Virus record (IMG/VR): IMGVR_UViG_3300023278_002686
Location: 1 to 64,000 of that record
DNA: 64,000 nt
Direction: 5' to 3' (one strand)
Source: a virus
The number at the start of each line of letters is the position of its first letter. Within the stretch, counting starts at the first letter, position 1. Of this stretch, positions 13,620-63,070 are shown in pieces. The position numbers and the translations under genes were made by a program. Under the pieces are notes generated by a model. That model worked only from the letters and a program-made list of their open reading frames with translations. It did not search any database and was not told the DNA's origin.

Positions 13620-14396
13620 TTATATCTTATGAGAAAAATGTTTTTTATAAATTAATTCACATATTTCCCAATCTAATTCGGTGTCTATTTCAAAATTAGT
13701 CCATTCAGGCATGAAGTAAGGAAGAATAGGCTCTGTTAATCTACATTTATCTTTTTTAATATTTCCAATAGTATTGATATAAAAAGAACCATTCTCTATA
13801 AACACTTGACCTCTTCCTATTACAATTTCTTGTCTTCTTTTTCTATTTTTATAATCATAATTAATAGGAAGAAAACTTTCGTTATTACCCCAATAAAATC
13901 TTTTTGTTCTAGATAAAGATATTAAAGATTTGAATAAATCATTTTTAGAATACTCTTTAAATTCAGCAGTGGCTTGTATTAAATTATCGGCTGTTAGAAA
14001 AGGATTTGTAACTTGAATTAAATAAAATAAATCTTCTTCGTTAAGGAAATATCGTTTAGGTCTCATATTATGACTATCTTGTGGCATATAATATGTATTA
14101 ATATAGTCTAACATAACATCTTCTGTTGAAGAATCATCTTTAGCTAATTCTAAATCTCTTATATGAAAACTTATTGTTTTAGATACTTTAATGTCCTCAT
14201 TAGATCTAAATGTTTCGACGATATCTATAATTTCTATAGATTCTGTAGATATTATAATATGATCAAATATTTTAGACTTAATACATGTGTCTAAACATCG
14301 TTCTAATAAAGAGTCTCCACCACAAAATGGTTTAATATTCTTATTAGGTATTCCTTTGCTTCCACCTCGTACTGGTATAAATGCGGTTCTATTCAT
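13620..14396 (-). CDS. neuA: acylneuraminate cytidylyltransferase (CMP-sialic acid synthetase family)
   Basis: IPVRGGSKGIPNKN, QVTNPF, ENGSFY, EIDTELD. Confidence 0.88.
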   Translation of the reverse strand: MNRTAFIPVRGGSKGIPNKNIKPFCGGDSLLERCLDTCIKSKIFDHIIISTESIEIIDIVETFRSNEDIKVSKTISFHIRDLELAKDDSSTEDVMLDYINTYYMPQDSHNMRPKRYFLNEEDLFYLIQVTNPFLTADNLIQATAEFKEYSKNDLFKSLISLSRTKRFYWGNNESFLPINYDYKNRKRRQEIVIGRGQVFIENGSFYINTIGNIKKDKCRLTEPILPYFMPEWTNFEIDTELDWEICELIYKKHFSHKI

Positions 14397-45894: not shown

Positions 45895-46518
45895 ATGAAA
45901 TTAATTAAACCATCATATGAAATTTTAGATCATATTAATAGATTTCAAGTTCTTAGTAAATTAGAATTAGCTGGTAGAACGTGCTATAAATCTGAATCGA
46001 AAATTACTGAAGAATCTGCTTCTAAATTTGTAGAAATGATTTGTAAAAGAAATCATGAAAGTGTTTTAGAACATTTTTCTTTTTCTGTTAGATTTATCTG
46101 TGATAGAGGAGTATCTCATGAATTAGTTAGGCATAGATTAGCAAGTTATTCACAGGAATCGACTAGGTATTGTAATTACTCTAAAGATAAATTTGGAAAT
46201 GAATTAACATTTATTAGACCTTTATGGTTTCCTTATGATGAAGATAGTTCTAATGAAGCTATAGAGATTTGGAAAGTTTCTTTAATAACATCTGAGAATG
46301 CTTACTTTAATCTATTAAAAGAAGGATGGACACCTCAACAAGCTAGATCAGTTCTTCCAAATTCCCTTAAAACAGAAATAATTACTACTGCTAATTTGAG
46401 AGAATGGAAGCATATTCTTGAATTAAGAACCTCAACAGCAGCTCACCCTCAAATAAGGCAAATTATGATACCATTACAGAATGAATTACGTAGTATAATA
46501 CCAGAAATTTTTAAATAA
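45895..46518 (+). CDS. thyX: FAD-dependent thymidylate synthase
   Basis: HESVLEH, HELVRHRLASYSQESTRY, ARSVLP, AHPQIR. Confidence 0.96.
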   Translation: MKLIKPSYEILDHINRFQVLSKLELAGRTCYKSESKITEESASKFVEMICKRNHESVLEHFSFSVRFICDRGVSHELVRHRLASYSQESTRYCNYSKDKFGNELTFIRPLWFPYDEDSSNEAIEIWKVSLITSENAYFNLLKEGWTPQQARSVLPNSLKTEIITTANLREWKHILELRTSTAAHPQIRQIMIPLQNELRSIIPEIFK

Positions 46519-49698: not shown

Positions 49699-50564
49699 TG
49701 GGTGGTGGAACATATTCAATTAGTAATAGTACTTCACGTAGGGATACGTTGGATTATGCTCATAAATCAATAGATCAGATTTTTACAAGTAAATCTATTG
49801 AAAAAACAATGGACCCTATAAATTTCGATATAAGAGAAGCTAGAGATAGTGAAGAACATCCTGAATCTATTGCAGTAATTATTAATTTAGATGTAACTGG
49901 GTCAATGGGAGCAATACCACATTATTTAATTCGAAATGGACTTCCAAATCTTATGGGAAAAGTTCAACAATTAGGAATTAAAGATCCTCAAATTCTTATG
50001 ACTGCTATTGGAGATCACGAATGTGATAGATCTCCTTTACAAATAGGACAATTCGAATCTAGTGACGAACTTATAGATAAGTGGTTAACTTCTATTTATG
50101 TAGAAGGAGGTGGTGGTGGAAATAATGGAGAAAGTTATCTTTTAGCATGGTATCTTGCTACATTTAAGACCTCTATCGATTGTTGGGAAAAGAGAAAACA
50201 AAAAGGATTTCTTTTTACAATAGGTGATGAACCTACTCTTAGGAATATTCCTGGATTAGTATTAAACGATCTATGTGGAAATGGACAACATAAAGATTAT
50301 TCTGCTACAGAGCTTTTAAGTTTGGCAAAAGAAAAATATCATGTTTTTCATTTACATCTTAAGGAAGGGTTTAATGGTATGGATCCTAATGTTATGGGAG
50401 ATTGGAAACAATTGCTTGGAGAAAATCTTATTATTATAGATAATAAAGAAGATATCTCAAAAGTAATTCCAGAAATTATTGCTAAACATTATAAGAGTAA
50501 TGTATTAGAAGAAGTAGTTTCTGTTTCAGAAAATGAAGAAGAAAAAGAGGAAATTATATTATGA
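49698..50564 (+). CDS. von Willebrand factor A (MIDAS) domain protein
   Basis: DVTGSM, IGD, EGGGGGN..ESY, IGDE. Confidence 0.8.
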   Translation: MGGGTYSISNSTSRRDTLDYAHKSIDQIFTSKSIEKTMDPINFDIREARDSEEHPESIAVIINLDVTGSMGAIPHYLIRNGLPNLMGKVQQLGIKDPQILMTAIGDHECDRSPLQIGQFESSDELIDKWLTSIYVEGGGGGNNGESYLLAWYLATFKTSIDCWEKRKQKGFLFTIGDEPTLRNIPGLVLNDLCGNGQHKDYSATELLSLAKEKYHVFHLHLKEGFNGMDPNVMGDWKQLLGENLIIIDNKEDISKVIPEIIAKHYKSNVLEEVVSVSENEEEKEEIIL

Positions 50565-51679
50565 GTAATGTAGCCGTTATTGGATTAGGTTTTGGTGATG
50601 AGGGTAAAGGATTAGTAACTGATTATCTATGTTCTAAATTATCTAATCCTTTAGTGGTTAGATTTTCTGGTGGACACCAGGCTGCTCATAATGTAGTATT
50701 TAAAGATACACAACATATATTTTCTAATTTTGGATCAGGTACATTAAGATGGATTCCTACTTACTGGAGTCCTCAATGTACTATTGATCCTATTGGAATT
50801 TTAAATGAATTAAAAATTTTAAAAGATAAAAATATAAATCCAAAACTTTTTATAGATGCTGAATGCCCAGTTACCACACCGTATGATAAGTGTGCTAATC
50901 AAATACAATTTACTAAGAATAATCATGGATCAGTAGGGGTTGGATTTGGAACTACTATTCAAAGAGAAAAAGATTTTTATTCTTTAAAATTTATAGATTT
51001 ATTTTATCCTCAAGTTTTTAAAGAAAAATTAAAAATGATTATTAATTATTATGATTTTTCAACACCTCAAGACGAAATAGATATTATTACCAGAGAATTT
51101 AAAATGGTTTGTAAGGAATTAATTAGAACTAAAGGAATTGAAATGGTTCCTTATAGATCTTCAATGAATTTTGATAATTATATATATGAAGGATCTCAAG
51201 GATTAATGTTAGATCCTAAAATTGGATTTTTTCCACATGTTACTCGATCAAATATAATGATAAATACTTTAAAGAATAATGATTATATTCGTCAATATTA
51301 TATGGTAACTAGAGCATATTGTACTCGACATGGAAATGGACCATTTCCTAATGAAGGAAAAAGTGATCATATAAAAGATAATCCAGATGAAACAAATGTA
51401 TATAATGAATATCAAGGTAATTTTAAAAAAATTATTTTAGATGTTTCTTTATTAGAATATGCTATAAGAAGAACTTCTTTAAAAAGATATAATTCAAAAA
51501 ATACATTAGTAATTACATGTATGGATCATTTAAGTGAGTACTTATTTTTATATTCAGGACAAGTTTGTAAAGCAGATAGTAAAGAAGATATGGCTATTAA
51601 GATAGCATCTTTATTAAATATAGATCATGTTTTAATAAGCACAGGTTGTACAGCTGACGATATAAAGGAAATAAACTAA
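50561..51679 (+). CDS. divergent adenylosuccinate synthetase (PurA)-like protein
   Basis: GDEGKG, RFSGG.QA.H, HGSVGVG, EGSQG..LD, FPHVTRS, TRHG.GPFP.E. Confidence 0.82.
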   Translation: MSNVAVIGLGFGDEGKGLVTDYLCSKLSNPLVVRFSGGHQAAHNVVFKDTQHIFSNFGSGTLRWIPTYWSPQCTIDPIGILNELKILKDKNINPKLFIDAECPVTTPYDKCANQIQFTKNNHGSVGVGFGTTIQREKDFYSLKFIDLFYPQVFKEKLKMIINYYDFSTPQDEIDIITREFKMVCKELIRTKGIEMVPYRSSMNFDNYIYEGSQGLMLDPKIGFFPHVTRSNIMINTLKNNDYIRQYYMVTRAYCTRHGNGPFPNEGKSDHIKDNPDETNVYNEYQGNFKKIILDVSLLEYAIRRTSLKRYNSKNTLVITCMDHLSEYLFLYSGQVCKADSKEDMAIKIASLLNIDHVLISTGCTADDIKEIN

Positions 51680-51945: not shown

Positions 51946-52506
51946 ATGAGTAATATATGGTATTCATCAGATTGGCATTTATCTCATCATAATTTAAGAA
52001 AAGTTTTTAGACCTCAATTTTCTTCAAGTGAAGAAATGGATTTATATATAATAGAAAAGTTTTTTTCTGAAGTTAAAAATGGAGATAGATTTTATTTCCT
52101 TGGAGATTTAGCTTGGAACAAACAAATAGGTCAACAATTTTTTGAAAGATTAAAAAAGACTAATATACAATTTTATTTTGTATATGGAAATCATGATAAG
52201 AAATTATGGAAAAAATCTTATCTTTCTAAATATTGTACTACACAACCATCGTGGATAAAAGATATTAAAATAGATAGTGTTAAAATAGCACTATGTCATT
52301 ATCCAATGTTATCATGGAATTGTAGTCATTATAATGCGTATATGCTTCACGGACATCATCATTCAAATGCTATGGATAGATTTCAAGGTAAAAGAATGAA
52401 TGTATGTTTAGACATGAGAAACTATCAATTTGTAACTCATGATGAAGTTTTAGAATATATGAAAAATCAACCAGATAACTGGGATTTAATTAAAAAGGAG
52501 AATTAG
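51946..52506 (+). CDS. calcineurin-like metallophosphoesterase
   Basis: SDWH, LGD, GNHD, CHYP, HGHHH. Confidence 0.88.
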   Translation: MSNIWYSSDWHLSHHNLRKVFRPQFSSSEEMDLYIIEKFFSEVKNGDRFYFLGDLAWNKQIGQQFFERLKKTNIQFYFVYGNHDKKLWKKSYLSKYCTTQPSWIKDIKIDSVKIALCHYPMLSWNCSHYNAYMLHGHHHSNAMDRFQGKRMNVCLDMRNYQFVTHDEVLEYMKNQPDNWDLIKKEN

Positions 52507-52745: not shown

Positions 52746-53153
52746 ATGACAACAGAAAATACAAAACTTTTTAACCTATTTAAAGAAGAATGTTTATATT
52801 GGATTAATGAATTTTCATTAAATGATTGGGAAGTATCATTTGATCGTACTGATGATTATGAATGTGTTGCAAAGATATGTTGGAATACGTTAGCTAAAAA
52901 TGCTACAATTGTATTATCTAGTAGATTAGATAAAGAAAGTTCTCATGAGTTTTATATTAGAGGAGCAGCTTTTCATGAAGTATGTGAGTTATTATTAAGT
53001 TATTTAGTTGATGAATTAATTCCAATATATGCATCTGAATATATTCAAGAAAAAGTGCACTCAATTATTAGAAGATTAGAAAATACATTTTTTAATAAAA
53101 AATATGACAAATTAAGAAAAGATTATATTAATAAATTAGGGAGTTACAAATGA
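52746..53153 (+). CDS. zincin-like hypothetical protein
   Basis: AFHEVCE variant of HExxH. Confidence 0.45.
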   Translation: MTTENTKLFNLFKEECLYWINEFSLNDWEVSFDRTDDYECVAKICWNTLAKNATIVLSSRLDKESSHEFYIRGAAFHEVCELLLSYLVDELIPIYASEYIQEKVHSIIRRLENTFFNKKYDKLRKDYINKLGSYK

Positions 53154-53704
53154 ATTTATGTGAAATATGCAAAGACGATAGAAAAATTTTCTATTCAACA
53201 AAATGTAAACAATCTCTTTGCGTAAAACATTATATGCAATTGAAAAGATTTGAAAAAATAAGAGATAATACACCGTCTATTCCTAAAAAAAATAACGAAT
53301 GGATTAAGAAAAAAGATCATTATATATTACGTATTCATACTAAAAATAAGTATAATGATGTTTTAATTGATTTAAATGATTTTGCAAAAGTATCTAGATA
53401 TCATTGGAATATTATTTCTAATAGATATGTTATACATGCAAAATCTAAAACTTATTTATCTAATTTACTATTAAATTCTAAAGATGTTAATAAAAAAGTT
53501 TTACATATAGATGGAAATAGTCTAGATAATAGAAAAGAAAATTTAAAAATAATTGATATACATAAATATTTAGAAAAAGGAATTTCTTTTGATAAAGATA
53601 CAGGCAAATATGTAATATATTTATATATGGGTAGATATAATACATTAAAAGAAGCTCAAACAAAGAAAAAAACTTTTGATAAAATATTACAGGAGATGAA
53701 ATGA
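53150..53704 (+). CDS. HNH homing endonuclease with AP2-like C-terminus
   Basis: HIDGNSLDNRKENL, YMGRY.T..EA. Confidence 0.8.
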   Translation: MNLCEICKDDRKIFYSTKCKQSLCVKHYMQLKRFEKIRDNTPSIPKKNNEWIKKKDHYILRIHTKNKYNDVLIDLNDFAKVSRYHWNIISNRYVIHAKSKTYLSNLLLNSKDVNKKVLHIDGNSLDNRKENLKIIDIHKYLEKGISFDKDTGKYVIYLYMGRYNTLKEAQTKKKTFDKILQEMK

Positions 53705-54219
53705 TTTTAATTACAAAAATATGGAATGTTAAAACGCCTACAAGAGGATCTGAATTATCTGCTGGATTAGATTTTTATATACCGGAAGCGACTCCTGAGT
53801 TTATAGGAATTTTATCCTGGAAAAATGGATTAGATCTTAATATTTTTGAGGAAAACCCTGAAATTAAGATTTTTCCTTTCGAGAAAATAATTATTCCTTC
53901 CGGTATTAAAGTAAAAATTCCTAAAGATAAAGTATTAGTTGCTTTCAATAAATCAGGAATAGCTCTTAAAAAAGGATTAGATGTTGGTGCTAGTGTAGTA
54001 GATGCTGACTATGAAGGTGAAATTCATATACATCTTACGAATACAACACAAACAATAAAAGTTTTAAAATTTGGACAAAAAGCAGTACAATTTTTATTAT
54101 TAGATATAAATTATGATAAAATATTAGAAGTTACAGGAGAAGAACTTGAAAAAAGACATGTACTGGATCATAATAGTGATAGAGGTTCAGGTGGATTTGG
54201 AAGTACAGGATTAACATAA
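53701..54219 (+). CDS. dut: trimeric dUTPase
   Basis: SAGLD, KSG, VVDADYEGE, Q, RGSGGFGSTG. Confidence 0.95.
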   Translation: MILITKIWNVKTPTRGSELSAGLDFYIPEATPEFIGILSWKNGLDLNIFEENPEIKIFPFEKIIIPSGIKVKIPKDKVLVAFNKSGIALKKGLDVGASVVDADYEGEIHIHLTNTTQTIKVLKFGQKAVQFLLLDINYDKILEVTGEELEKRHVLDHNSDRGSGGFGSTGLT

Positions 54220-54563
54220 TGGGATTATTTAAAAAACCAATTTATGAACATAATGATTTTAATCAAGAAAATGATATGTCTTTAACTTCCATGGATATGT
54301 TAATTAATGAAGTATATATTCAAGAAATACATAGAGATTTTTTAGAAAATAAAGTTATATTATATAATGAATTAACTAAAAGAAAAGAAGATATAAAAGA
54401 AAAGCATCCTAATTTATCTGAAGAAATATGTATTCGAAATGCATGTTCTTTTTTAGCTTTTCCTTTTTCTGGGAAAATTCAAATGGAAGAAGATGAATTA
54501 AAAAAAGTTTCTAATGAGTTATATCATCTTTATTTTAAGTTAAAAGAATTAATAAACGATTAA
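54219..54563 (+). CDS. hypothetical protein
   Basis: ORF, stop/start overlap. Confidence 0.55.
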   Translation: MGLFKKPIYEHNDFNQENDMSLTSMDMLINEVYIQEIHRDFLENKVILYNELTKRKEDIKEKHPNLSEEICIRNACSFLAFPFSGKIQMEEDELKKVSNELYHLYFKLKELIND

Positions 54564-54575
54564 GAGGAGACTAAT

Positions 54576-55670
54576 ATGAGCATTGGAATATTAAAATTAG
54601 GTGGAAGATTAACCTGGGATGCAGTAGATAAAACAGGTGGCTTAGGAGAAGCGAAAGCTATTTGTGAACTTCTTGCAAAACATAGAAAATTATATATATA
54701 TACGAAAATAAATAATAAAGACAATCTTAATCCAAAACATAATATTAATATATGGGATATAAATACTGTTCATGATTCTTTAGATGATCATGACATATTA
54801 ATAATATTTAATGGACATGTTAATTTTTATGGTGGAGCAGAAAATCCTGAGCAAATAAAGATTTATGAACTAATTAATAAATTTAAAGGTAAAATATTCT
54901 ATATACTTATAGATCCTAATTTGTATTTAAAACAAATATGGAATTCTGTAGAAAAAAAAGAATGGGGATCTAAATATTCTAAAGAGGATATTTTTATTAC
55001 ACGAAATGACATTAATATAATTACTTCTATCTATAATAGAGAAGCAGGTGTCATGCTGTGGAGTAAAGGAAAAATTCCATTTAAAACTTATAATTATTTT
55101 TCATTTGAAAAGTATCCTATGATATTTGCAATGCTTCAGCCTACTTCTAATTTAAAATATGATATATTATATATGGGAACATTCAGAAATGGAAAACGTC
55201 AAGATAAAATGATTAAATATTATTTTGGACATAAATATATAAATTCTATATTTATTGGAAAAACAAAACTTAAAGATTTTACTAAAAAATATTCTGAATT
55301 GATACCTGAGTTTTTACCTCCAGTCCAATTTAAAGATATAGGAACTGAAGTAAATCAATCAATTGCTCATGTATGTATAGGAGATAAATTTTATGAAGGA
55401 AATATTCTTACACCTAGAATATATGAGTGTATAAACTTTAATACTATCTGTTTTATAGATTCTGATCTAGATAAAAATAGATATATATTTGGAGATAATG
55501 ACTATTTTTATGTATCTTCGAGAGAAGAAGTTGAAGAAAAAGTTTTAGAATTAAAAAACAATATAGATTTTAGATTAGAAATGTTACAAAAACAAAGAGA
55601 ATTGATAAATTTTGATATTGATAATTACTCACAAAGATTATATAATATTCTTATAGGAGCTAAAATATGA
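54576..55670 (+). CDS. bgt: T4-type DNA beta-glucosyltransferase homolog (GT-B)
   Basis: VNFYGG, D..L..KQ.W..V....W, Y.GTFR.G.R..KM, IGDK.Y..N..TPR.YE, FID...D: colinear with T4 BGT motifs as recalled. Confidence 0.85.
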   Translation: MSIGILKLGGRLTWDAVDKTGGLGEAKAICELLAKHRKLYIYTKINNKDNLNPKHNINIWDINTVHDSLDDHDILIIFNGHVNFYGGAENPEQIKIYELINKFKGKIFYILIDPNLYLKQIWNSVEKKEWGSKYSKEDIFITRNDINIITSIYNREAGVMLWSKGKIPFKTYNYFSFEKYPMIFAMLQPTSNLKYDILYMGTFRNGKRQDKMIKYYFGHKYINSIFIGKTKLKDFTKKYSELIPEFLPPVQFKDIGTEVNQSIAHVCIGDKFYEGNILTPRIYECINFNTICFIDSDLDKNRYIFGDNDYFYVSSREEVEEKVLELKNNIDFRLEMLQKQRELINFDIDNYSQRLYNILIGAKI

Positions 55671-57478
55671 AAGTAACTATATTTAGTGGAGGAACTGGAA
55701 GTATTGCTTTATCTACAGGATTAAAGAAATTATTTCCTGAAATAGAAATTACTCATTTATTAAATGCTTATGATGATGGTAAATCTACTGGGATTGTAAG
55801 AAAAATGTATAACTGTTTAGGACCCTCAGATATTCGAAAAGTTCAATGGTTATATTATTCTTTATCACATAAAAATATAGATAAAAGATTAGAAGTTTTA
55901 TATAATGATAGAGTTGATTTAAATAAGATAGATGTTAAAAAATATTTAGATCTTTTTAAAGATAATGAATACTTTGGTTTTAAAAAATATTTAAATAAAG
56001 CTTTTAATTTATTTATAGACAATATAGATCATTATTTTGTCTTGAACTCAGACAATATGAAAGATTTTAATTTAATGAACTTAGTATATGCTTCTATGTT
56101 TAGTCATCCTGAATTTGGATATAAGTCTACTATAGACTACTTTAATAAAGTATTAGGAATAGAAGATACGATAGATTTAGTGTCTTATGATAATTTAAGT
56201 CTATGTGCTACTACTAAATATAATAAAGAATTAATTTGTGAAGCTGATATTGTAAATTATAATAATCCTAATGATAAAATACAATCAATTTATTTTGTAG
56301 ATTCTAGTGAAAACTATCAAACTCCTTTAATGAATCCAAAAATAAAGACTTATATAGAAGAAAGTGATATGATAATTATTTCTCCAGGAACTGAATGGAG
56401 TAGTTTAATTCCATCATTTATAGATCAAGAAGAGGAAATTATTAATTTAATCAGAAATCATCCATTAGTTATTAAAGTAATAAATAATGAATATGATTTA
56501 GATAGTGTAGGAGTTTCTAATAAAGAAATAATATCTCATTATAGAATTTTATTTGAAAATTTGAATAATTTTAATATAATTATTAATTTAGATGCAAGAA
56601 AAGAATTACAAATGTTAGATTTACCTAGTGAGTGTGGCATATATATACAACAAATGGATAATATAGATGGAAAACATAATCCTGATAAATTAGCTAAGTT
56701 TATACTTAACATTTTTTTAAGAAAAAAAGGATTTTTACAAAATACTATTCTTATAGATTTTGATGATACTTTATGGCAAAGACTTGAAAAAAATGAAGAA
56801 ATATCTATAGAAAATATAAAACTTTTAAATGAACTTGGTAAATATAAAAAAATCCACATCATATCAGGTAATTCATATGAAAGTATTAAATCTAAATTAT
56901 TAAAAGTATTTACTTTAAAAGAATTTTATAATTTAAACTTTAGTATAAGAGCAGATGGTGGAAGTAATTTATATGAACAAGACCAAATAGTTACTTATTT
57001 AGAAGATAATTATGTATGTCAAAGTACAATAGATTTAGTAGAAAATGTAATTAATACTCATAAAGAATTATTAGGTAATGATTCTATACACTTTGAAAAA
57101 AGAGGAATACGCCCTGATGATAGAGTAACCTGTTTAGCTATTAAGCCTATTTCTAAATTATTAAGAAAATTATTTTGTGAATATTTAAATTTACATTTAG
57201 AAAAAGAAAATGTAAGCGGAATTGGTATTGAAACTGGTTTCGCTACAATTGAAGTTAAATGGTTTCGTTTTAATAAGTCTCTAATGTTAGAACATATTCC
57301 AGATTTAGAGAATACCATCTATATAGGTGATGAGTGTGATTACTTAAATGGAAATGATTATGAAATTTCTAAAAAATGTACTGATTATTATAATGTAGAT
57401 TCTATAAAAGAAACTAATACATTATTAAAAGTATTATTATTTTATAAGAAAAGAAAAGAAAATGAAACAAATACTTAA
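55667..57478 (+). CDS. CofD/YvcK(GlmR)-family domain fused to PMM-like HAD (IIB) domain
   Basis: FSGGTG, DDGKSTG..R, GPSDIR, SPG..WSSLIP, H.PDKLA; then DFDDTL, ISG, YIGDE, GNDYEI. Confidence 0.8.
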   Translation: MKVTIFSGGTGSIALSTGLKKLFPEIEITHLLNAYDDGKSTGIVRKMYNCLGPSDIRKVQWLYYSLSHKNIDKRLEVLYNDRVDLNKIDVKKYLDLFKDNEYFGFKKYLNKAFNLFIDNIDHYFVLNSDNMKDFNLMNLVYASMFSHPEFGYKSTIDYFNKVLGIEDTIDLVSYDNLSLCATTKYNKELICEADIVNYNNPNDKIQSIYFVDSSENYQTPLMNPKIKTYIEESDMIIISPGTEWSSLIPSFIDQEEEIINLIRNHPLVIKVINNEYDLDSVGVSNKEIISHYRILFENLNNFNIIINLDARKELQMLDLPSECGIYIQQMDNIDGKHNPDKLAKFILNIFLRKKGFLQNTILIDFDDTLWQRLEKNEEISIENIKLLNELGKYKKIHIISGNSYESIKSKLLKVFTLKEFYNLNFSIRADGGSNLYEQDQIVTYLEDNYVCQSTIDLVENVINTHKELLGNDSIHFEKRGIRPDDRVTCLAIKPISKLLRKLFCEYLNLHLEKENVSGIGIETGFATIEVKWFRFNKSLMLEHIPDLENTIYIGDECDYLNGNDYEISKKCTDYYNVDSIKETNTLLKVLLFYKKRKENETNT

Positions 57479-58175
57479 ATTTAAAGAACTATTTGAAAAA
57501 TGTTCTAATGAACGATTTAAAAACTATAAAGAGATTATGGATTTTTGTCAATTGAAATCAAGTAAATTAAATGATATATGGTTTAATAGTAATAAGACAG
57601 ATTATAGTGTATATGAACATAATGATTATATTTATGATATGTTTATATGTTATGGTTTTTATTCTAGTGCAGCTATTAGATATATGATAAAATATTTTAA
57701 AGAAAATATTTCTAATTGGAAAGATTTAACTTATTTTGATGATTATAATGGAATTGGATTAACTACACTTCATTTATTAAATGAAGAATTAAAATCATAT
57801 TATTTTAATGATAATAAAATTCAATTAAATACCTTTAAAAAGTTATGTGAATCATATAAATTTGATATTCCAATTTTAGATAAAAATAAAAAAAATATAT
57901 ATGATGTATATATTAGTTTGGAAATAATAGAACACTATAAAGAACCTTTAAAGTATTTAAAAGAAGCAACTAATAGGATTAAAGATAATGGATATTTAAT
58001 ATATACTACAACATTTAATCCTTTATTTTTAGGTCATCATCATGAATATATAATAGATGGTAAAATTTATTTACCTAAAAAAACTAATAGAATAGTAAAT
58101 TCTTATTTAAGAGAAAATTTTGAACTTTTATTTAGAGGATTTAATGGATTACCAAAAATTTATAAAAAGAAGTAA
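57462..58175 (+). CDS. class I SAM-dependent methyltransferase-like protein
   Basis: FDDYNGIG motif I variant, YDV..SLEIIEH..EP, GYL. Confidence 0.65.
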   Translation: MKQILKFKELFEKCSNERFKNYKEIMDFCQLKSSKLNDIWFNSNKTDYSVYEHNDYIYDMFICYGFYSSAAIRYMIKYFKENISNWKDLTYFDDYNGIGLTTLHLLNEELKSYYFNDNKIQLNTFKKLCESYKFDIPILDKNKKNIYDVYISLEIIEHYKEPLKYLKEATNRIKDNGYLIYTTTFNPLFLGHHHEYIIDGKIYLPKKTNRIVNSYLRENFELLFRGFNGLPKIYKKK

Positions 58176-58178
58176 TAT

Positions 58179-58919
58179 ATGAAAAAATTAGGAATTATAT
58201 TAGCTGCGGGAAAACAATCTAGAATAAATTCTTTAATACCTAAAGCTTTGTTTCATCACAATGGAGAATTTCTTTTAGAAAAAAATATTCAAGTAATGAA
58301 AAAATATGTAGATAAAATCTATGTCATAATAGATGAAGATAAACTTTCTTTTTATCCGAAAGAAAAAGATAGAGAATATATTTTAATAAATCCCGGAGGT
58401 GGAACTGGTCATTCACTATATAATGCATTAATTAAATGTAATCAAATAATATCTAATAGATTTGATAAAGAATATATCATTAAATGGTCAGATGCTTTTC
58501 ATGACGATTATTTTTATGAAGAATTATTTAAATATGATGTTTCGAATTATTTAAGTAAAGTTTTGATAAGTAAAATAAAAAATCCTTATGTAGAATTCAT
58601 TATGACTGAAAATATTTGTCAAAAAATATTATTTTCAAAAAATGGAGATATATGTTCTAAAGAAGGATATCAAGATGCTTCTATATTTTCTTTTAATGGA
58701 AAAAGTTTGTATCTATTATTAACAATATTTGTTAGTCAATATTATAATTTTCAGATAAAAGGCATACAATATAATACAACTAATCAAGAATTTAACTTAT
58801 TAGATTTATATAATATTAGTCCATCTTTAACTAAAACTACAAAATGGATTTATATAGATCGACTTCCTAAATCATTTAATACAATAGAAGAATATGAAGA
58901 AAATTTTGATATTTCATAA
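58179..58919 (+). CDS. sugar-phosphate nucleotidyltransferase (NTP_transferase family)
   Basis: IILAAGKQSR....PKAL, GTGH, WSD, SFNT.EE. Confidence 0.82.
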   Translation: MKKLGIILAAGKQSRINSLIPKALFHHNGEFLLEKNIQVMKKYVDKIYVIIDEDKLSFYPKEKDREYILINPGGGTGHSLYNALIKCNQIISNRFDKEYIIKWSDAFHDDYFYEELFKYDVSNYLSKVLISKIKNPYVEFIMTENICQKILFSKNGDICSKEGYQDASIFSFNGKSLYLLLTIFVSQYYNFQIKGIQYNTTNQEFNLLDLYNISPSLTKTTKWIYIDRLPKSFNTIEEYEENFDIS

Positions 58920-58950
58920 GTTTTTTATATTATATATATAAGGAGATAAC

Positions 58951-59502
58951 ATGGTAGTAATATTTGAAGGTCCTGATAATGTAGGAAAAGGAACTCAAAT
59001 TAGAAATATATTTCAAGAATTAAGTAAATCAAAACCTACACATACATTACATTATTCAGGAATTAAAAGAGATTTTTCTGAGGATGCTTTAAAAGATTCT
59101 AAAAAAATATATAAAAGTATGTTTAGATTATTAAATCAAAATTATATTCAATCTAATTTTATTTTAGATCGAAGTCATTTAGGTGAGTATGTTTATGGAC
59201 ATTTGTATAGAAAATATGATCCTAGTTATATATTTGATTTAGAAAAATCTATATTTCCAGGAATGATGAGCCAAACTTACTTATTAATGTTCATAGATAA
59301 CCCTATGAACCTCATCAAAAGAGATGATGGACTTTCTTTATCTACAAAAAAAAGATATAAGATTATAGAATTATATAGATTTCAAGAAGCTTTTAAATTA
59401 TCACATATCAAAAATAAATTTCTAATAGATATAGAAGGAAAAGATATTAATGATGTTAAACAAGAAATATTTAATTATTTAGACATTGAGGGAGATCTAT
59501 AA
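58951..59502 (+). CDS. dNMP / thymidylate kinase
   Basis: FEGPDNVGKGT, ILDRSH.GEYVYG..YR. Confidence 0.85.
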   Translation: MVVIFEGPDNVGKGTQIRNIFQELSKSKPTHTLHYSGIKRDFSEDALKDSKKIYKSMFRLLNQNYIQSNFILDRSHLGEYVYGHLYRKYDPSYIFDLEKSIFPGMMSQTYLLMFIDNPMNLIKRDDGLSLSTKKRYKIIELYRFQEAFKLSHIKNKFLIDIEGKDINDVKQEIFNYLDIEGDL

Positions 59503-60230
59503 TGCTAAGATATAATGAAATAACTATGTTACATTTTTTTAAAGATCTCTATAAGAAAGTAAAAGATGAAGATTTTGTAGTAGACAAATCTGGAGTCAAG
59601 ATGGCTGAAATAATAGCTCCAAAATTTGAATTGAATCCTAAACAAAAAATATTAAATTTTAATGAGACAAGAAAAACTCCTGAGAAATATGCTGAACAAG
59701 AATTAGCTTGGTATGATTCTCAAAGTCTTTCTATTAAAGGATATGTTGATAATGTAAAGATATGGCAACAAGTATCTTCATATAAGAAAGAAGTAAATTC
59801 TAATTATGGATGGTGTATTTATTCCCCTGATAATTATAGTCAATATTATAATTGTTTAAAAGAATTAATTAGAAATAAAGATTCAAGAAGAGCCGTTATG
59901 ATTTATCAAAGACCATCTATGTGGTTAGATTATAATAAAGATGGTATGTCAGATTTTATATGCACAGATGGGAGCCAATTATTTATAAGAAATAATAATA
60001 AAGGTGAAGACACTTTAATATATATTGTGAAACAAAGATCTATGGATATGATTTATGGGTTTTTTAATGATTTTTATTGGCATGGTATAGTATATGAACG
60101 AATGCTTAAAGATTTAAAAAAGACATATCCGAATTTAAATAATGGAAAGATAATATATGTTCCATTTTCGGCCCACGTATATGAAAAACATTTTAGTATG
60201 CTAAAGGAGATTGTTAATTGTGAAAAATAA
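59502..60230 (+). CDS. dCMP hydroxymethylase (T4 gp42-like, thymidylate synthase fold)
   Basis: NSNYGW, DSRRA.MIY.RPSM..DY.KDGMSDF.CT, RS.D...GF.ND (Asp at the cytosine-specificity site), SAHVYE.H. Confidence 0.88.
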   Translation: MLRYNEITMLHFFKDLYKKVKDEDFVVDKSGVKMAEIIAPKFELNPKQKILNFNETRKTPEKYAEQELAWYDSQSLSIKGYVDNVKIWQQVSSYKKEVNSNYGWCIYSPDNYSQYYNCLKELIRNKDSRRAVMIYQRPSMWLDYNKDGMSDFICTDGSQLFIRNNNKGEDTLIYIVKQRSMDMIYGFFNDFYWHGIVYERMLKDLKKTYPNLNNGKIIYVPFSAHVYEKHFSMLKEIVNCEK

Positions 60231-60651
60231 AATTGAATATTTTAAAAAGATAGCTCTTGAGACTGAAAATAATTCTACATGTGGTAGATTACATGTAGGA
60301 GCTGTTTTAGTAAAAGACGAGCGTATAATTTCTATAGGTTGGAACGGAACTCTTCCAGGAAAAATACATTGTGAAAATTTATTTGCAAAGAAAAAACTTA
60401 CATTAGCAACACACCATGAATGGTCATTAAAAAATGAACTTCATGCTGAAATGAATTTATTAATGTTTTGTGCAAAAAATGGAATTAAAACAAAAGGTTG
60501 TGAAGTATTTATTACAGTAAGTCCTTGTATGCTATGTACAAAATTGATAATTGCTGCAGGGATTAAAAAAGTTTATTTTATTTTGCAATATAATGATTTT
60601 GATGAAGTATTTAAATCTTTTAGAAAGGATTTAAAGTTTATACAAATTTAA
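60211..60651 (+). CDS. dCMP deaminase
   Basis: STC.R..VGA, HAE.N, SPC..C. Confidence 0.92.
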   Translation: MLIVKNKIEYFKKIALETENNSTCGRLHVGAVLVKDERIISIGWNGTLPGKIHCENLFAKKKLTLATHHEWSLKNELHAEMNLLMFCAKNGIKTKGCEVFITVSPCMLCTKLIIAAGIKKVYFILQYNDFDEVFKSFRKDLKFIQI

Positions 60652-61218: not shown

Positions 61219-62307
61219 ATGAAAAAAGTATTAATATTAGGTAACGGATTAAGTAGACAAAAATTTGAAAGCATAGAATTTATTAATAATTGGGATGGGG
61301 AAATATGGGGTTGTAATAACGTTTTTAGAGAACGTATAAAGTTACCTAGATTAGATTTAATTATTGGTGATGATCAAACTGTGATAGATGGTTATCATTA
61401 TAAGCTTGATAATAAATTAGATTATGAGATATATGCAAAAAGACATATTACAAATTATACTAATCATAGAATACAGATAGTACATTTGCCTCAAGAATAT
61501 ATAAAAGATTCTGGAACTACACTAATATATAAAGCTTTATTTGAAAATTATGATGAAATTAAAGTTTGTGGATTTGATTGTGGTGGTAAAGATATATATG
61601 TTAAAGGACATGAAAAAAAAGATAAAACAATTTGGATAAAACGTTGGAGAGAAATTGATAAAGTATTTACTCTTAGAAAAATAGAATTCATTTGTAATCC
61701 AGAAATAAAAGAATTTATTATGAGTAAACGAGATCCAAGAGATCATCTTAATACATATTTTCCTGGAAAAATAAATAATAAAGTTAAAGAAAGAAATTTT
61801 GGAGCTAAAACAGTTCTTATATTAGGAAATGGTGCTTCAAGAATTAAATATAAAGATTTTATTAATAATTGGACAAGTGAAATATGGGGATGTAATTGGT
61901 TGTTTAAAGAAGCGGATAGTCATGAAAATCTTACTCGAATTGGAAGTGTTCATAATGAAGTAATATCAGAAGCATATAAGTTTAAAAAAGAGAATAATTA
62001 TAACTATCTATTATATACAAAGCCAGTATTTAGAGAAGAATTTAAAGATAAGTTTATTTCTTATTTTTCAGATCCTAGAGGATGGGCAACTGGGCCTTTA
62101 ATGGTATTACAAGCATTAACTGAAAATTATAGACGTATTTATTTAAGTGGATTTGATTTTGGAGGAAAAGATGTCTATCAAAATCATTTTATAGAAGGGA
62201 GTAATTTTCAAAAACAGTTTGTAGAAATAATTTCTAGGTTTGGTCATAGAAAATTAAAATTTGTTGGAAAAACTCCAAAATTTATATTGCAGTTACAAAG
62301 GAAGTAG
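61219..62307 (+). CDS. tandem-duplicated Rossmann-like glycosyltransferase-type protein (MAF/sialyltransferase-like)
   Basis: two copies of VLILGNG.SR..FINNW..EIWGCN ... AL.ENY..I...GFD.GGKD.Y. Confidence 0.6.
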   Translation: MKKVLILGNGLSRQKFESIEFINNWDGEIWGCNNVFRERIKLPRLDLIIGDDQTVIDGYHYKLDNKLDYEIYAKRHITNYTNHRIQIVHLPQEYIKDSGTTLIYKALFENYDEIKVCGFDCGGKDIYVKGHEKKDKTIWIKRWREIDKVFTLRKIEFICNPEIKEFIMSKRDPRDHLNTYFPGKINNKVKERNFGAKTVLILGNGASRIKYKDFINNWTSEIWGCNWLFKEADSHENLTRIGSVHNEVISEAYKFKKENNYNYLLYTKPVFREEFKDKFISYFSDPRGWATGPLMVLQALTENYRRIYLSGFDFGGKDVYQNHFIEGSNFQKQFVEIISRFGHRKLKFVGKTPKFILQLQRK

Positions 62308-62308
62308 T

Positions 62309-63070
62309 ATGAAAATTGCGCTAATTACAATGATGGATGATCGATTTATAAAAGGTTTTGAAGCTTTTATTAAATCATTATTACATCATAATCCTTGGTT
62401 TAATTATCCTATGATAATTATTAATACAGGATTAATAAAAGAAAATCAAAAGAAATGTAAAAAGATGTATGACAATATCCATTTTTTCGCTCCTAAAGAA
62501 AGAGAATATCGACATGTCAATATGAAAAGAACTGAATATTGTTTACGAAAAACATACTATAAGTTAGACATGTTTTCTTATGAAAATTTTGATCGATTAG
62601 TTTTTATTGACATGGATACTATTATATTAGGAGATATCTCTTATTTATTTACACAGGTTGTGGCACCAATTGGAGCTTGTAAGGCATATGATTGGAAAGG
62701 AGATAGATTACGAAACGATTATAACTCAGGAGTTTTAGTTCTTAATTCTCCAGTAATTAACCTAGGAACATATAGAAAATTAATTATAAAAGCAAGACAA
62801 GGTTATTCGATGCCAGATCAAAAAACTATTAATAACTTTTTTGGTAAAAGAATATATCAAATACCTAAAATTTATAATTGTGAAAAACGTGTGAAGGATA
62901 GTATTTTTCTTCATTATGACAATAATAAAGGTAAATTAAGATTACAACAAGATGATATTAGAATACTTCATTTTGTTTCTCATAAACCTTGGAATCCATC
63001 TGGAAAATCGGAAAATAATCAAGGATACGAAGACTTAGAAGAAATATGGAAAAAATATTATGAGATGTAA
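62309..63070 (+). CDS. GT8-family glycosyltransferase
   Basis: YYKL, FIDMD, NSGV, DQ..IN, YN, ILHF...KPW; start at MKIAL. Confidence 0.88.
   Translation: MKIALITMMDDRFIKGFEAFIKSLLHHNPWFNYPMIIINTGLIKENQKKCKKMYDNIHFFAPKEREYRHVNMKRTEYCLRKTYYKLDMFSYENFDRLVFIDMDTIILGDISYLFTQVVAPIGACKAYDWKGDRLRNDYNSGVLVLNSPVINLGTYRKLIIKARQGYSMPDQKTINNFFGKRIYQIPKIYNCEKRVKDSIFLHYDNNKGKLRLQQDDIRILHFVSHKPWNPSGKSENNQGYEDLEEIWKKYYEM

Follow-up and report, generated by a model that had tools for sequence, protein, structure and literature searches.

The first 64 kb (64,000 nucleotides, hereafter the window) of a single 155,054-bp IMG/VR virus record, IMGVR_UViG_3300023278_002686, contains a block of seven genes, from which we propose that 5-hydroxymethylcytosine (5hmC) in the DNA of this phage is glycosylated with a sugar donor made by the phage itself. 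The probability of this reading was estimated at roughly 50%. Phage 5hmC glycosylation with a phage-encoded donor is a known kind of system; what is new here is the cassette of a YvcK-HAD fusion protein and a nucleotidyltransferase (NTase), which is undescribed in the literature searched. Judging from the gene content, the DNA base formed by this phage may also be new. The seven open reading frames (ORFs) lie at 54576-60651, all on the plus strand, where a first-pass annotation had placed seven tightly packed genes, and the family assignments made there held in Pfam, PHROG, PDB and structure comparisons. The features of the block are as follows.

54576-55670, plus strand: DNA glycosyltransferase of the beta-glucosyltransferase (BGT) family, GT-B fold, predicted to glycosylate 5hmC (PF09198, 1e-18; 1bgt, 2.6e-36)
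55667-56719, plus strand: YvcK/GlmR-like (CofD-superfamily) N-terminal domain of a 603-amino-acid (aa) fusion protein, residues ~1-350 (PF01933, 7e-19)
56720-57478, plus strand: HAD-IIB C-terminal domain of the fusion protein, phosphohexomutase-like (family profile, model and motifs)
57462-58175, plus strand: class I S-adenosylmethionine (SAM)-dependent methyltransferase, candidate O-methyltransferase of the DNA-linked sugar or of the donor (Atlas structure)
58179-58919, plus strand: predicted sugar-1-phosphate-type NTase (PF12804, over the cut-off; GlmU-like profile)
58951-59502, plus strand: thymidylate-kinase-like nucleotide kinase, predicted to act on 5-hydroxymethyl-deoxycytidine monophosphate (5hm-dCMP) (PHROG, 1.6e-12; P-loop)
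59502-60230, plus strand: predicted gp42-type dCMP hydroxymethylase, i.e., 5hm-dCMP synthase (1b49, 5.7e-53)
60211-60651, plus strand: dCMP deaminase (PF00383, 8.6e-23; PHROG dCMP deaminase, 9.5e-43)

The seven ORFs are co-directional and overlap or nearly abut. Overlaps were found between the BGT and fusion genes (4 nt), the fusion and methyltransferase genes (17 nt), the kinase and synthase genes (1 nt) and the synthase and deaminase genes (20 nt), and the gaps between the methyltransferase and NTase genes and between the NTase and kinase genes are 3 and 31 nt, respectively. A ribosome-binding site, AAGAGGAG, is located upstream of the BGT start. No terminator-like site was detected between the seven genes, and the sole hairpin falls within the deaminase ORF. 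The promoter scan of this AT-rich DNA (~24% G+C in the window) was uninformative, with 97 sites against 98 expected. One operon is the best explanation for this block.

The base to be glycosylated was read from the synthase. Its comparison with the T4 gp42 structure (1b49) gave more than 50% identity across the aligned core, and the residues at the positions of L143, C146, D169 and N177 of E. coli ThyA are D, C, D and D. Some phage homologs of thymidylate synthase yield 5-hydroxy-dCMP, not 5hm-dCMP, and the diagnostic residue is an Asn at ThyA D169 (PMC13326640, 2026). A 5hm-dCMP synthase is recognized by the catalytic Cys, an Asp at ThyA N177 for dCMP specificity, and an acidic residue at L143 for hydroxymethyl, not methyl, formation (PMC13326640). 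All of these gp42-type residues are present in the phage synthase, and the D169N change of the 5-hydroxy-dCMP synthases of the RB69 gp48 type is absent. From this D/C/D/D signature, the phage synthase is therefore, at the level of sequence, a dCMP hydroxymethylase of the 5hmC type. The formation of 5-hydroxy-dCMP was rejected because D169 is retained, and an action on dUMP because of the Asp at the N177 position. The 5hmC-type signature, with Asp169 kept, was found in all 24 of the 24 readable synthase homologs that are linked to related modules in other phages (described below). The neighbouring kinase scored 25 bits in Pfam, where the cut-off is 27, and its PHROG match is to thymidylate kinase, with a P-loop of GPDNVGKGT. 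The deaminase contains the zinc motifs HAE and PCxxC. Together with the glycosyltransferase described next, these genes bear out the first-pass reading of the block as an hmC pathway with a BGT-family transferase.

The BGT homolog scored 68.1 bits against PF09198 (GT63), and 69.8 bits in the genome search, with a cut-off of 27, and it matched the PHROG beta-glucosyltransferase family at 1.6e-53; the structure 1bgt listed above is that of T4 BGT. The catalytic Asp100 and Glu22 and the UDP-binding Arg191, Arg195, Arg269 and Glu272 of the T4 enzyme are kept in the phage protein. Across the BGTs of the related modules, E22, D100, R191, R195, D258 and R269 are kept in 34/34, and Y261 and E272 in 97% of the 34. 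The enzyme is thus predicted to transfer a hexose to 5hmC in duplex DNA. The module BGTs also form a clade with fixed K7, R11, G21, G67, C99, P101, T189, Y240 and Q268, at positions where T4 differs. Since these substitutions lie near the conserved sites, the sugar donor may differ from that of T4. An ordinary product has to be considered here, in which the cassette supplies only UDP-glucose, plain beta-glucosyl-5hmC is formed as in T4, and the methyltransferase acts elsewhere. The retention of all T4 catalytic and UDP-binding residues agrees with this product, whereas the fixed clade-specific residues weigh mildly against it; we return to it with the HAD domain and the methyltransferase.

The gene that follows BGT encodes a fusion protein of two domains. 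A family profile was built from 59 fusion proteins, and an alignment-based model of the phage protein was obtained with a pLDDT of 91.4 and a pTM of 0.89, while the single-sequence fold reached a pLDDT of only 38.7. The profile matched YvcK structures at 8e-29 to 2e-20 and true CofD (3c3d) at 0.009. In the Foldseek comparison, the model gave TM scores of 0.79-0.81 with 2o2z, 0.69 with CofD 3c3d, and 0.57-0.69 over the CofD and FbiA structures. The motifs GGTG, DDGKSTG and GPSDxRK are invariant in the N-terminal domain, and at the positions equivalent to D40 and D41 of GlmR, D36 does not vary, while position 37 holds D or N. By sequence, fold and DD motif the domain belongs with YvcK/GlmR, and although it falls in PF01933, it is nearer to YvcK than to CofD or FbiA by both profile and TM score. 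The N-terminal domain is thus, as far as profile and model can tell, YvcK/GlmR-like and not a true CofD. YvcK/GlmR binds UDP-N-acetylglucosamine (UDP-GlcNAc), and it has been reported to form UDP-GlcNAc from GlcNAc-1-phosphate and UTP in a reaction that requires the DD motif (PMC10128056). At least 650 relatives of the fusion protein were found at E <= 0.001, with phage and bacterial copies mixed, and some of them have the NTase fused at the C-terminus.

Pfam did not detect the HAD domain on the single fusion sequence; the family profile and the model revealed it. HAD motifs I to IV could be assigned, and both Asp residues of DxDxT are kept; the sequences DFDDT and GDE..GND are present, and no variation was found at D364, D366, T368 or K537. 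The HAD half of the profile matched the alpha-phosphoglucomutase of Lactococcus (4bnd) at 4e-15 and PMM2/PMM1 at ~1e-13, while plain phosphatases were matched at 0.003-0.008. The order was the same in Foldseek, where 4bnd and phosphomannomutases ranked first, and the domain is therefore nearer to the mutases than to phosphatases of the same subfamily. A PDB search using the HAD domain alone gave matches too weak to read. That the best match is an alpha-phosphoglucomutase also suits the ordinary product, as the benefit of self-supplied UDP-glucose would be obvious; T4 depends on the UDP-glucose of its host.

For the NTase, a profile was built from 36 sequences. Its best match was the N-terminal uridylyltransferase domain of GlmU (4e-21) over profile positions 2-197, which is nearly the whole length, followed by archaeal sugar-1-phosphate NTases, IspD and HddC. 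G11, R15, K22 and D105 are invariant in the 36 sequences, and the K25/D105 signature of GlmU is present. No CofC or FbiD entry was found among the best 60 of the 76 PDB matches to the profile, and the neighbours of the NTase genes are DNA-modification or polysaccharide genes, not the F420 context of a CofC/FbiD-type partner. The protein is predicted from these comparisons to be a nucleotidyltransferase of the sugar-1-phosphate type. From the mutase-like HAD domain and the GlmU-like NTase, a phage-made NDP-hexose donor for BGT is favoured.

A different chemistry for the same genes is phospho-transfer, in which the YvcK/CofD-like domain would move hexose-1-phosphate, or another phospho-compound, from an NDP-hexose or another nucleoside diphosphate (NDP) donor, made by the mutase and the NTase, onto a hydroxyl of glucosyl-5hmC or 5hmC with release of the nucleoside monophosphate, giving a phosphodiester-bridged, also methylated product. 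The domain does belong to PF01933 and its model does match CofD and FbiA structures within the TM range given above; just as CofD works with the nucleotidyltransferase CofC, an NTase adjoins the domain or is fused to it in nearly all loci. The YvcK-like domain is also surplus to a simple donor pathway, and a bacterial polypeptide that joins GT2, YvcK and HAD domains (L069, below) resembles two transferases working on one acceptor. However, the profile match to YvcK is far above that to CofD, the activity reported for YvcK/GlmR is nucleotidyl transfer and not phospho-alcohol transfer, the NTase is GlmU-like with CofC and FbiD missing among its best 60 PDB matches, and a phosphodiester-linked cytosine modification was not found in the literature searched. 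We consider phospho-transfer unlikely. Its most specific form is quite improbable, namely that the YvcK/CofD-like domain is a new DNA-glycan phosphotransferase which places hexose-1-phosphate, taken from the NDP-hexose of the fused mutase and the partner NTase, onto glucosyl-5hmC, with a methyltransferase cap, so that each modified cytosine bears a methylated phosphodiester-bridged disaccharide. If it were true, it would represent a modification class undescribed for cytosine and a catalytic role for the debated YvcK family.

The cassette is conserved far beyond this phage. Related loci were retrieved with an alignment query, while a single-protein query retrieved none. The phage set searched included 50 IMG/VR loci, megaphage LR756500, the Ralstonia jumbo phage RsoM2USA and three metagenomic contigs, and 44 non-redundant loci remained after removal of duplicates. 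NTase and BGT homologs were counted within 3.5 kb of the fusion gene, and kinase and synthase homologs within 8.5 kb. The NTase is next to the fusion gene in 42 of the 43 scorable phage loci and BGT in 34/43; nearby kinase homologs were counted in 25/44 loci and synthase homologs in 23. Phage contigs from Logan, JGI and IMG/VR share the order BGT, fusion, NTase with LR756500 and RsoM2USA, and in the three metagenomic contigs this order is accompanied by kinase and synthase homologs nearby. In the cultured phage RsoM2USA, BGT (ORF2), the fusion gene (ORF1) and the NTase gene (ORF486) span the ends of the linear record (L001, MG752970.1 29-3020; L145 343044-343793), and the linked synthase is of the 5hmC type. 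The triad is annotated as hypothetical throughout in GenBank, and the paper on the phage lists ORF2 as a beta glucosyl transferase match. In some phage loci lacking BGT, a homolog of a TET-associated glycosyltransferase adjoins the cassette (L012 5289-6140, L023 7111-7992, L030 5247-6218 and L057 5474-6388), which suggests that the cassette also serves post-replicative, TET-type 5hmC pathways. The NTase is fused to the fusion protein in P0043 and L125. The first-pass annotation had linked the extra genes to hmC and BGT and had called for a check of neighbourhood conservation across phages; the check was run, and the synteny across dozens of unrelated phage contigs, together with the fused forms, upholds the functional link.

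The bacterial set comprised 80 loci from genomes and metagenome-assembled genomes (MAGs), in which HAD is either fused to the YvcK/CofD-like gene or encoded by a gene of its own after it. In this split form, the HAD protein is nearest to a sugar-phosphate phosphatase and to beta-phosphoglucomutases. An NTase homolog adjoins in 77 of 78 bacterial loci, while a BGT or synthase homolog was found beside the bacterial cassette in none of them. The neighbours are GT2, GT4 and GT8 glycosyltransferases, a Wzx-type flippase, NeuB and a GDP-mannose-dehydratase-like enzyme, i.e., those of polysaccharide loci. In a Clostridia MAG, one 1007-aa ORF (L069 385-3405) contains GT2, YvcK/CofD-like and HAD domains, and in a further protein the YvcK-like domain is joined to the NTase. 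Because the glycosyltransferase partners in phages and bacteria are of unrelated folds, the cassette appears to be a general partner of glycosyltransferases, which phages have, on the evidence of gene order, coupled to DNA glycosyltransferases.

These polysaccharide loci raise the question of whether the fusion protein, the methyltransferase and the NTase act on DNA at all, or on a virion or host-surface glycan together with a glycan island that begins 1.6 kb downstream of the block. The relevant features are listed below.

Window 62261-63070 and 64000-75123 of the full record (G000; L003 3286-15123): glycan island with three GT8, two GT29-like (sialyltransferase-like), a KpsS/Capsule_synth-like protein, a polysaccharide pyruvyltransferase, three methyltransferases and NeuB
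13620-14396, minus strand: CTP_transf_3 gene of the CMP-Kdo or CMP-sialic-acid synthetase type (1.9e-14), far from the NeuB and GT29-like genes

A role in such a glycan would accord with the bacterial pair in polysaccharide loci, and one Lachnospiraceae locus has the pair beside GT8 and NeuB. In the phages, on the other hand, the other module loci lack homologs of the island genes but have BGT in 34/43, phages of very different kinds share the adjacency to BGT or a TET-associated glycosyltransferase and to 5hmC-type synthases, and the separate CMP-sugar synthetase candidate at 13620-14396 means that the island needs no such NTase. We regard a function away from DNA as very improbable. The CTP_transf_3 gene likely activates the nonulosonic acid of the island. 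Given the CMP-sugar synthetase candidate elsewhere in the genome, the island, whose genes do not occur in the other module loci, was treated as separate. The NTase was also considered as a CMP-sugar synthetase for the NeuB/GT29 island; this is unlikely, given the CTP_transf_3 gene and the fact that the NTase follows the fusion gene in loci without an island. GT8-like enzymes can glycosylate 5hmC (bioRxiv 10.1101/2023.12.21.572611), so it is possible that the DNA glycan is extended by the island.

The Pfam scores of the methyltransferase, 23.7 and 18 bits, are both under the cut-off and its motif I, DDYNGIG, is degenerate, while its Atlas model (pTM 0.83) matched Methyltransf_23/11/12 clusters with TM scores of 0.70-0.77 (0.77 for Methyltransf_23/11). 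The model thus assigns the ORF at 57462-58175 to the class I SAM methyltransferases. When the methyltransferase alone was searched against the PDB, the matches were too weak to read. No relatives were found in 136 phage and bacterial module loci, and the large protein collection contained only seven homologs. In L142 the gene order is dUTPase, BGT, methyltransferase and fusion, and in L141 the relative follows a TET-associated glycosyltransferase. A second, unrelated class I methyltransferase lies between BGT and the fusion gene in L010, L033, L038/L044 and L054, and L047 has a weaker match to its profile upstream of BGT. The presence of two unrelated methyltransferase families in these modules points to repeated recruitment of methyltransferases to DNA glycosylation modules, and O-methylation of the sugar is the simplest reading of the role of the phage enzyme. 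In addition, L143 (282-2106) and L144 (134-1958) encode a 365-aa protein with a short peptidase-U32 match (2.6e-6), followed by a methyltransferase relative of 39% identity, and a family B polymerase fragment adjoins. Among the U32-family proteins are RNA pyrimidine C5 hydroxylases. In these two loci, the pair could hydroxylate a DNA base and then O-methylate it.

These observations bear on the ordinary product introduced above. Most module loci have no methyltransferase, and self-supplied UDP-glucose with plain glucosyl-5hmC would fit most of the evidence. The recruitment of two unrelated methyltransferase families into the module argues against it, as does the finding that the family of the phage enzyme occurs almost only beside DNA base-modifying genes. 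A plain glucosyl-5hmC product is, on balance, rather unlikely.

The pathway that we propose can be described in order. The gene identities, residue signatures, synteny and fusions were observed, whereas the catalytic steps, the kind of sugar and the group that is methylated are what we infer. Before replication, the gp42-type enzyme would hydroxymethylate dCMP, and the thymidylate-kinase-like kinase would phosphorylate 5hm-dCMP. The HAD domain, acting as a phosphohexomutase, would convert hexose-6-phosphate to hexose-1-phosphate, from which the GlmU-like NTase would form NDP-hexose with a nucleoside triphosphate. The NDP-sugar would be handled by the YvcK/GlmR-like domain, which could be a second nucleotidyltransferase or a control element. 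Once the DNA has been replicated, its 5hmC would receive the hexose from the BGT-family enzyme, and the class I methyltransferase would methylate a sugar hydroxyl, on the donor or on the DNA, to give O-methyl-hexosyl-5hmC. The first-pass annotation had suggested two routes. The first, a phage-built and possibly O-methylated NDP-sugar, is the best fit to the mutase-like HAD domain, the sugar-1-phosphate-type NTase and a methyltransferase family found with DNA glycosyltransferases, although its chemistry is still a prediction. The second, decoration of glucosyl-5hmC by CofC/CofD logic, is weakened in that form by the YvcK-like N-terminal domain and the NTase, whose nearest match is GlmU.

Several points weigh against a phage-made, methylated sugar donor. 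The mutase and the NTase would suffice for NDP-hexose, so that the constant YvcK/CofD-like domain has no necessary role, which is a weak point of the proposal. To our knowledge, the sole firmly established group transfer in the CofD superfamily is the phosphodiester-forming CofD reaction. A mutase and a sugar phosphatase are inseparable by sequence for the HAD domain, and the uracil-binding Gln of GlmU is not kept in the NTase in the profile alignment. In L143 and L144 the methyltransferase relative follows the U32-like protein with no glycosyltransferase in view, and the enzyme could therefore act on a base hydroxyl instead of a sugar. The whole genome yielded no MazG-family pyrophosphatase and no evident T4 gp56-like dCTPase, so that C in the DNA may be replaced wholly or only in part. 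The record comes from an uncultured virus and has an estimated completeness of 92%.

The dTMP supply would be kept by the deaminase, dUTPase and ThyX, the latter two encoded apart from the block as the first-pass annotation had described. The genes concerned, and the ORF that separates dUTPase from BGT, are as follows.

45895-46518, plus strand: ThyX flavin-dependent thymidylate synthase (PF02511, 1.7e-47, over the cut-off), a separate dTMP supply
53701-54219, plus strand: dUTPase (PF00692, 3.9e-17), with C-terminal motif V, RGSGGFGSTG, intact; directly upstream of the block
54219-54563, plus strand: 114-aa ORF with no assigned function, between dUTPase and BGT

A dUTPase homolog is located within ~8.5 kb of the fusion gene in 8/44 related phage loci. 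The 114-aa ORF had no Pfam match and no homolog in the related loci. The replication genes of the phage include a family A DNA polymerase, a DnaB-type helicase and SbcCD-like nucleases. From the polymerase and the helicase, the replication module is not T4-like in its predicted gene content, in agreement with the first-pass description of the phage.

Three further ORFs upstream of the block were noted, all on the plus strand. The one at 51946-52506 encodes a calcineurin-like metallophosphoesterase, which may be another accessory protein of the nucleotide block; in megaphage LR756500, a homolog of 29% identity (L002 6238-6768) is encoded ~2 kb away from BGT. A possible homing endonuclease of 184 aa, matched weakly by HNH_3 (0.0018), is encoded at 53150-53704, just 5' of dUTPase. 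The ORF at 50561-51679 encodes an adenylosuccinate-synthetase homolog of 372 aa, shorter than cellular PurA. Its identity as PurZ was rejected, as the PurA score is far better and the GDEGKG loop is kept, and a 2-aminoadenine pathway is therefore not indicated.

Glycosylation shields phage DNA from restriction enzymes and CRISPR nucleases, and it also provides tools for epigenome chemistry. The module is widespread, with 44 non-redundant phage loci and 80 bacterial loci, and if our proposal is true, it would be a third, independent route to a phage-made sugar donor. The YvcK/GlmR family, which is poorly understood, would thereby be linked to a defined pathway of glycosylation, both in phages and in bacterial polysaccharide loci, and the phage methyltransferase hints at methylated DNA sugars. 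The proposal can be tested directly in the cultured phage RsoM2USA, in which the triad is present.

A YvcK/CofD family member in phage DNA modification was not found in the literature searched. The term 'CofD' is absent from PMC13326640 and from bioRxiv 10.1101/2023.12.21.572611, and 'YvcK' is absent from PMC13326640; the bioRxiv text was checked for 'CofD' only. The CofC/CofD (FbiD/FbiA) pair of F420 biosynthesis resembles the phage cassette in its PF01933 superfamily membership and in the pairing of a transferase with a nucleotidyltransferase, but the CofD profile E-value of 0.009, the GlmU-like rather than CofC-like NTase and the lack of an F420 context set the phage apart. GlmR/YvcK of Firmicutes is the closest relative of the N-terminal domain in sequence and fold, with the DD motif conserved (PMC10128056). 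Unlike GlmR, the phage domain, at ~18% identity, is fused to HAD, is not in a yvcJ-glmR-whiA type operon, and is accompanied throughout by a separate GlmU-like NTase and by a glycosyltransferase.

The T4 pathway consists of gp42, the gp1 dNMP kinase, the cd deaminase and beta-glucosyltransferase. Its hydroxymethylase and its BGT are both homologous to those of this phage, with the diagnostic residues shared in the former and the catalytic and UDP-binding residues in the latter, and both phages encode a dCMP deaminase. However, T4 uses host UDP-glucose and has no donor genes, whereas the operon described here holds the YvcK-HAD fusion, NTase and methyltransferase genes. The phage kinase is thymidylate-kinase-like and not gp1-like, a MazG-type dCTPase was not found, and the phage has a family A polymerase and ThyX.

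Closer parallels are offered by phages with their own donor genes. RB69 and DLP3 carry UDP-arabinose donor genes (PMC13326640), and their arabinosyl-5-hydroxycytosine clusters have, like the present block, a thymidylate-synthase homolog, a thymidylate-kinase-like kinase, DNA glycosyltransferases and a donor pathway that involves a HAD enzyme and the fusion of an NTase with another enzyme. They differ in that their synthase has the D169N change and forms 5-hydroxycytosine, while the phage synthase keeps D169; in that the donor is made through arabinose-5-phosphate isomerase and an APH-like kinase, neither of which is present in the phage, where the YvcK-like domain is found instead; and in that their transferases are not BGT homologs (PMC13326640). 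In 'contig 53' of Pyle et al., a HAD-APH fusion, a cytidylyltransferase and a BGT-like GT-B enzyme are all needed for heptosyl-5hmC (bioRxiv 10.1101/2023.12.21.572611). The logic is the same and the layout nearly so, with a HAD fusion, an NTase and a BGT-like transferase. The partner of HAD is an APH-type kinase in 'contig 53' and a YvcK/CofD-family domain in our phage, and 5hmC is formed by a methyltransferase and a TET-like enzyme in the former (bioRxiv 10.1101/2023.12.21.572611), whereas a gp42-type synthase is predicted to form it in the latter.

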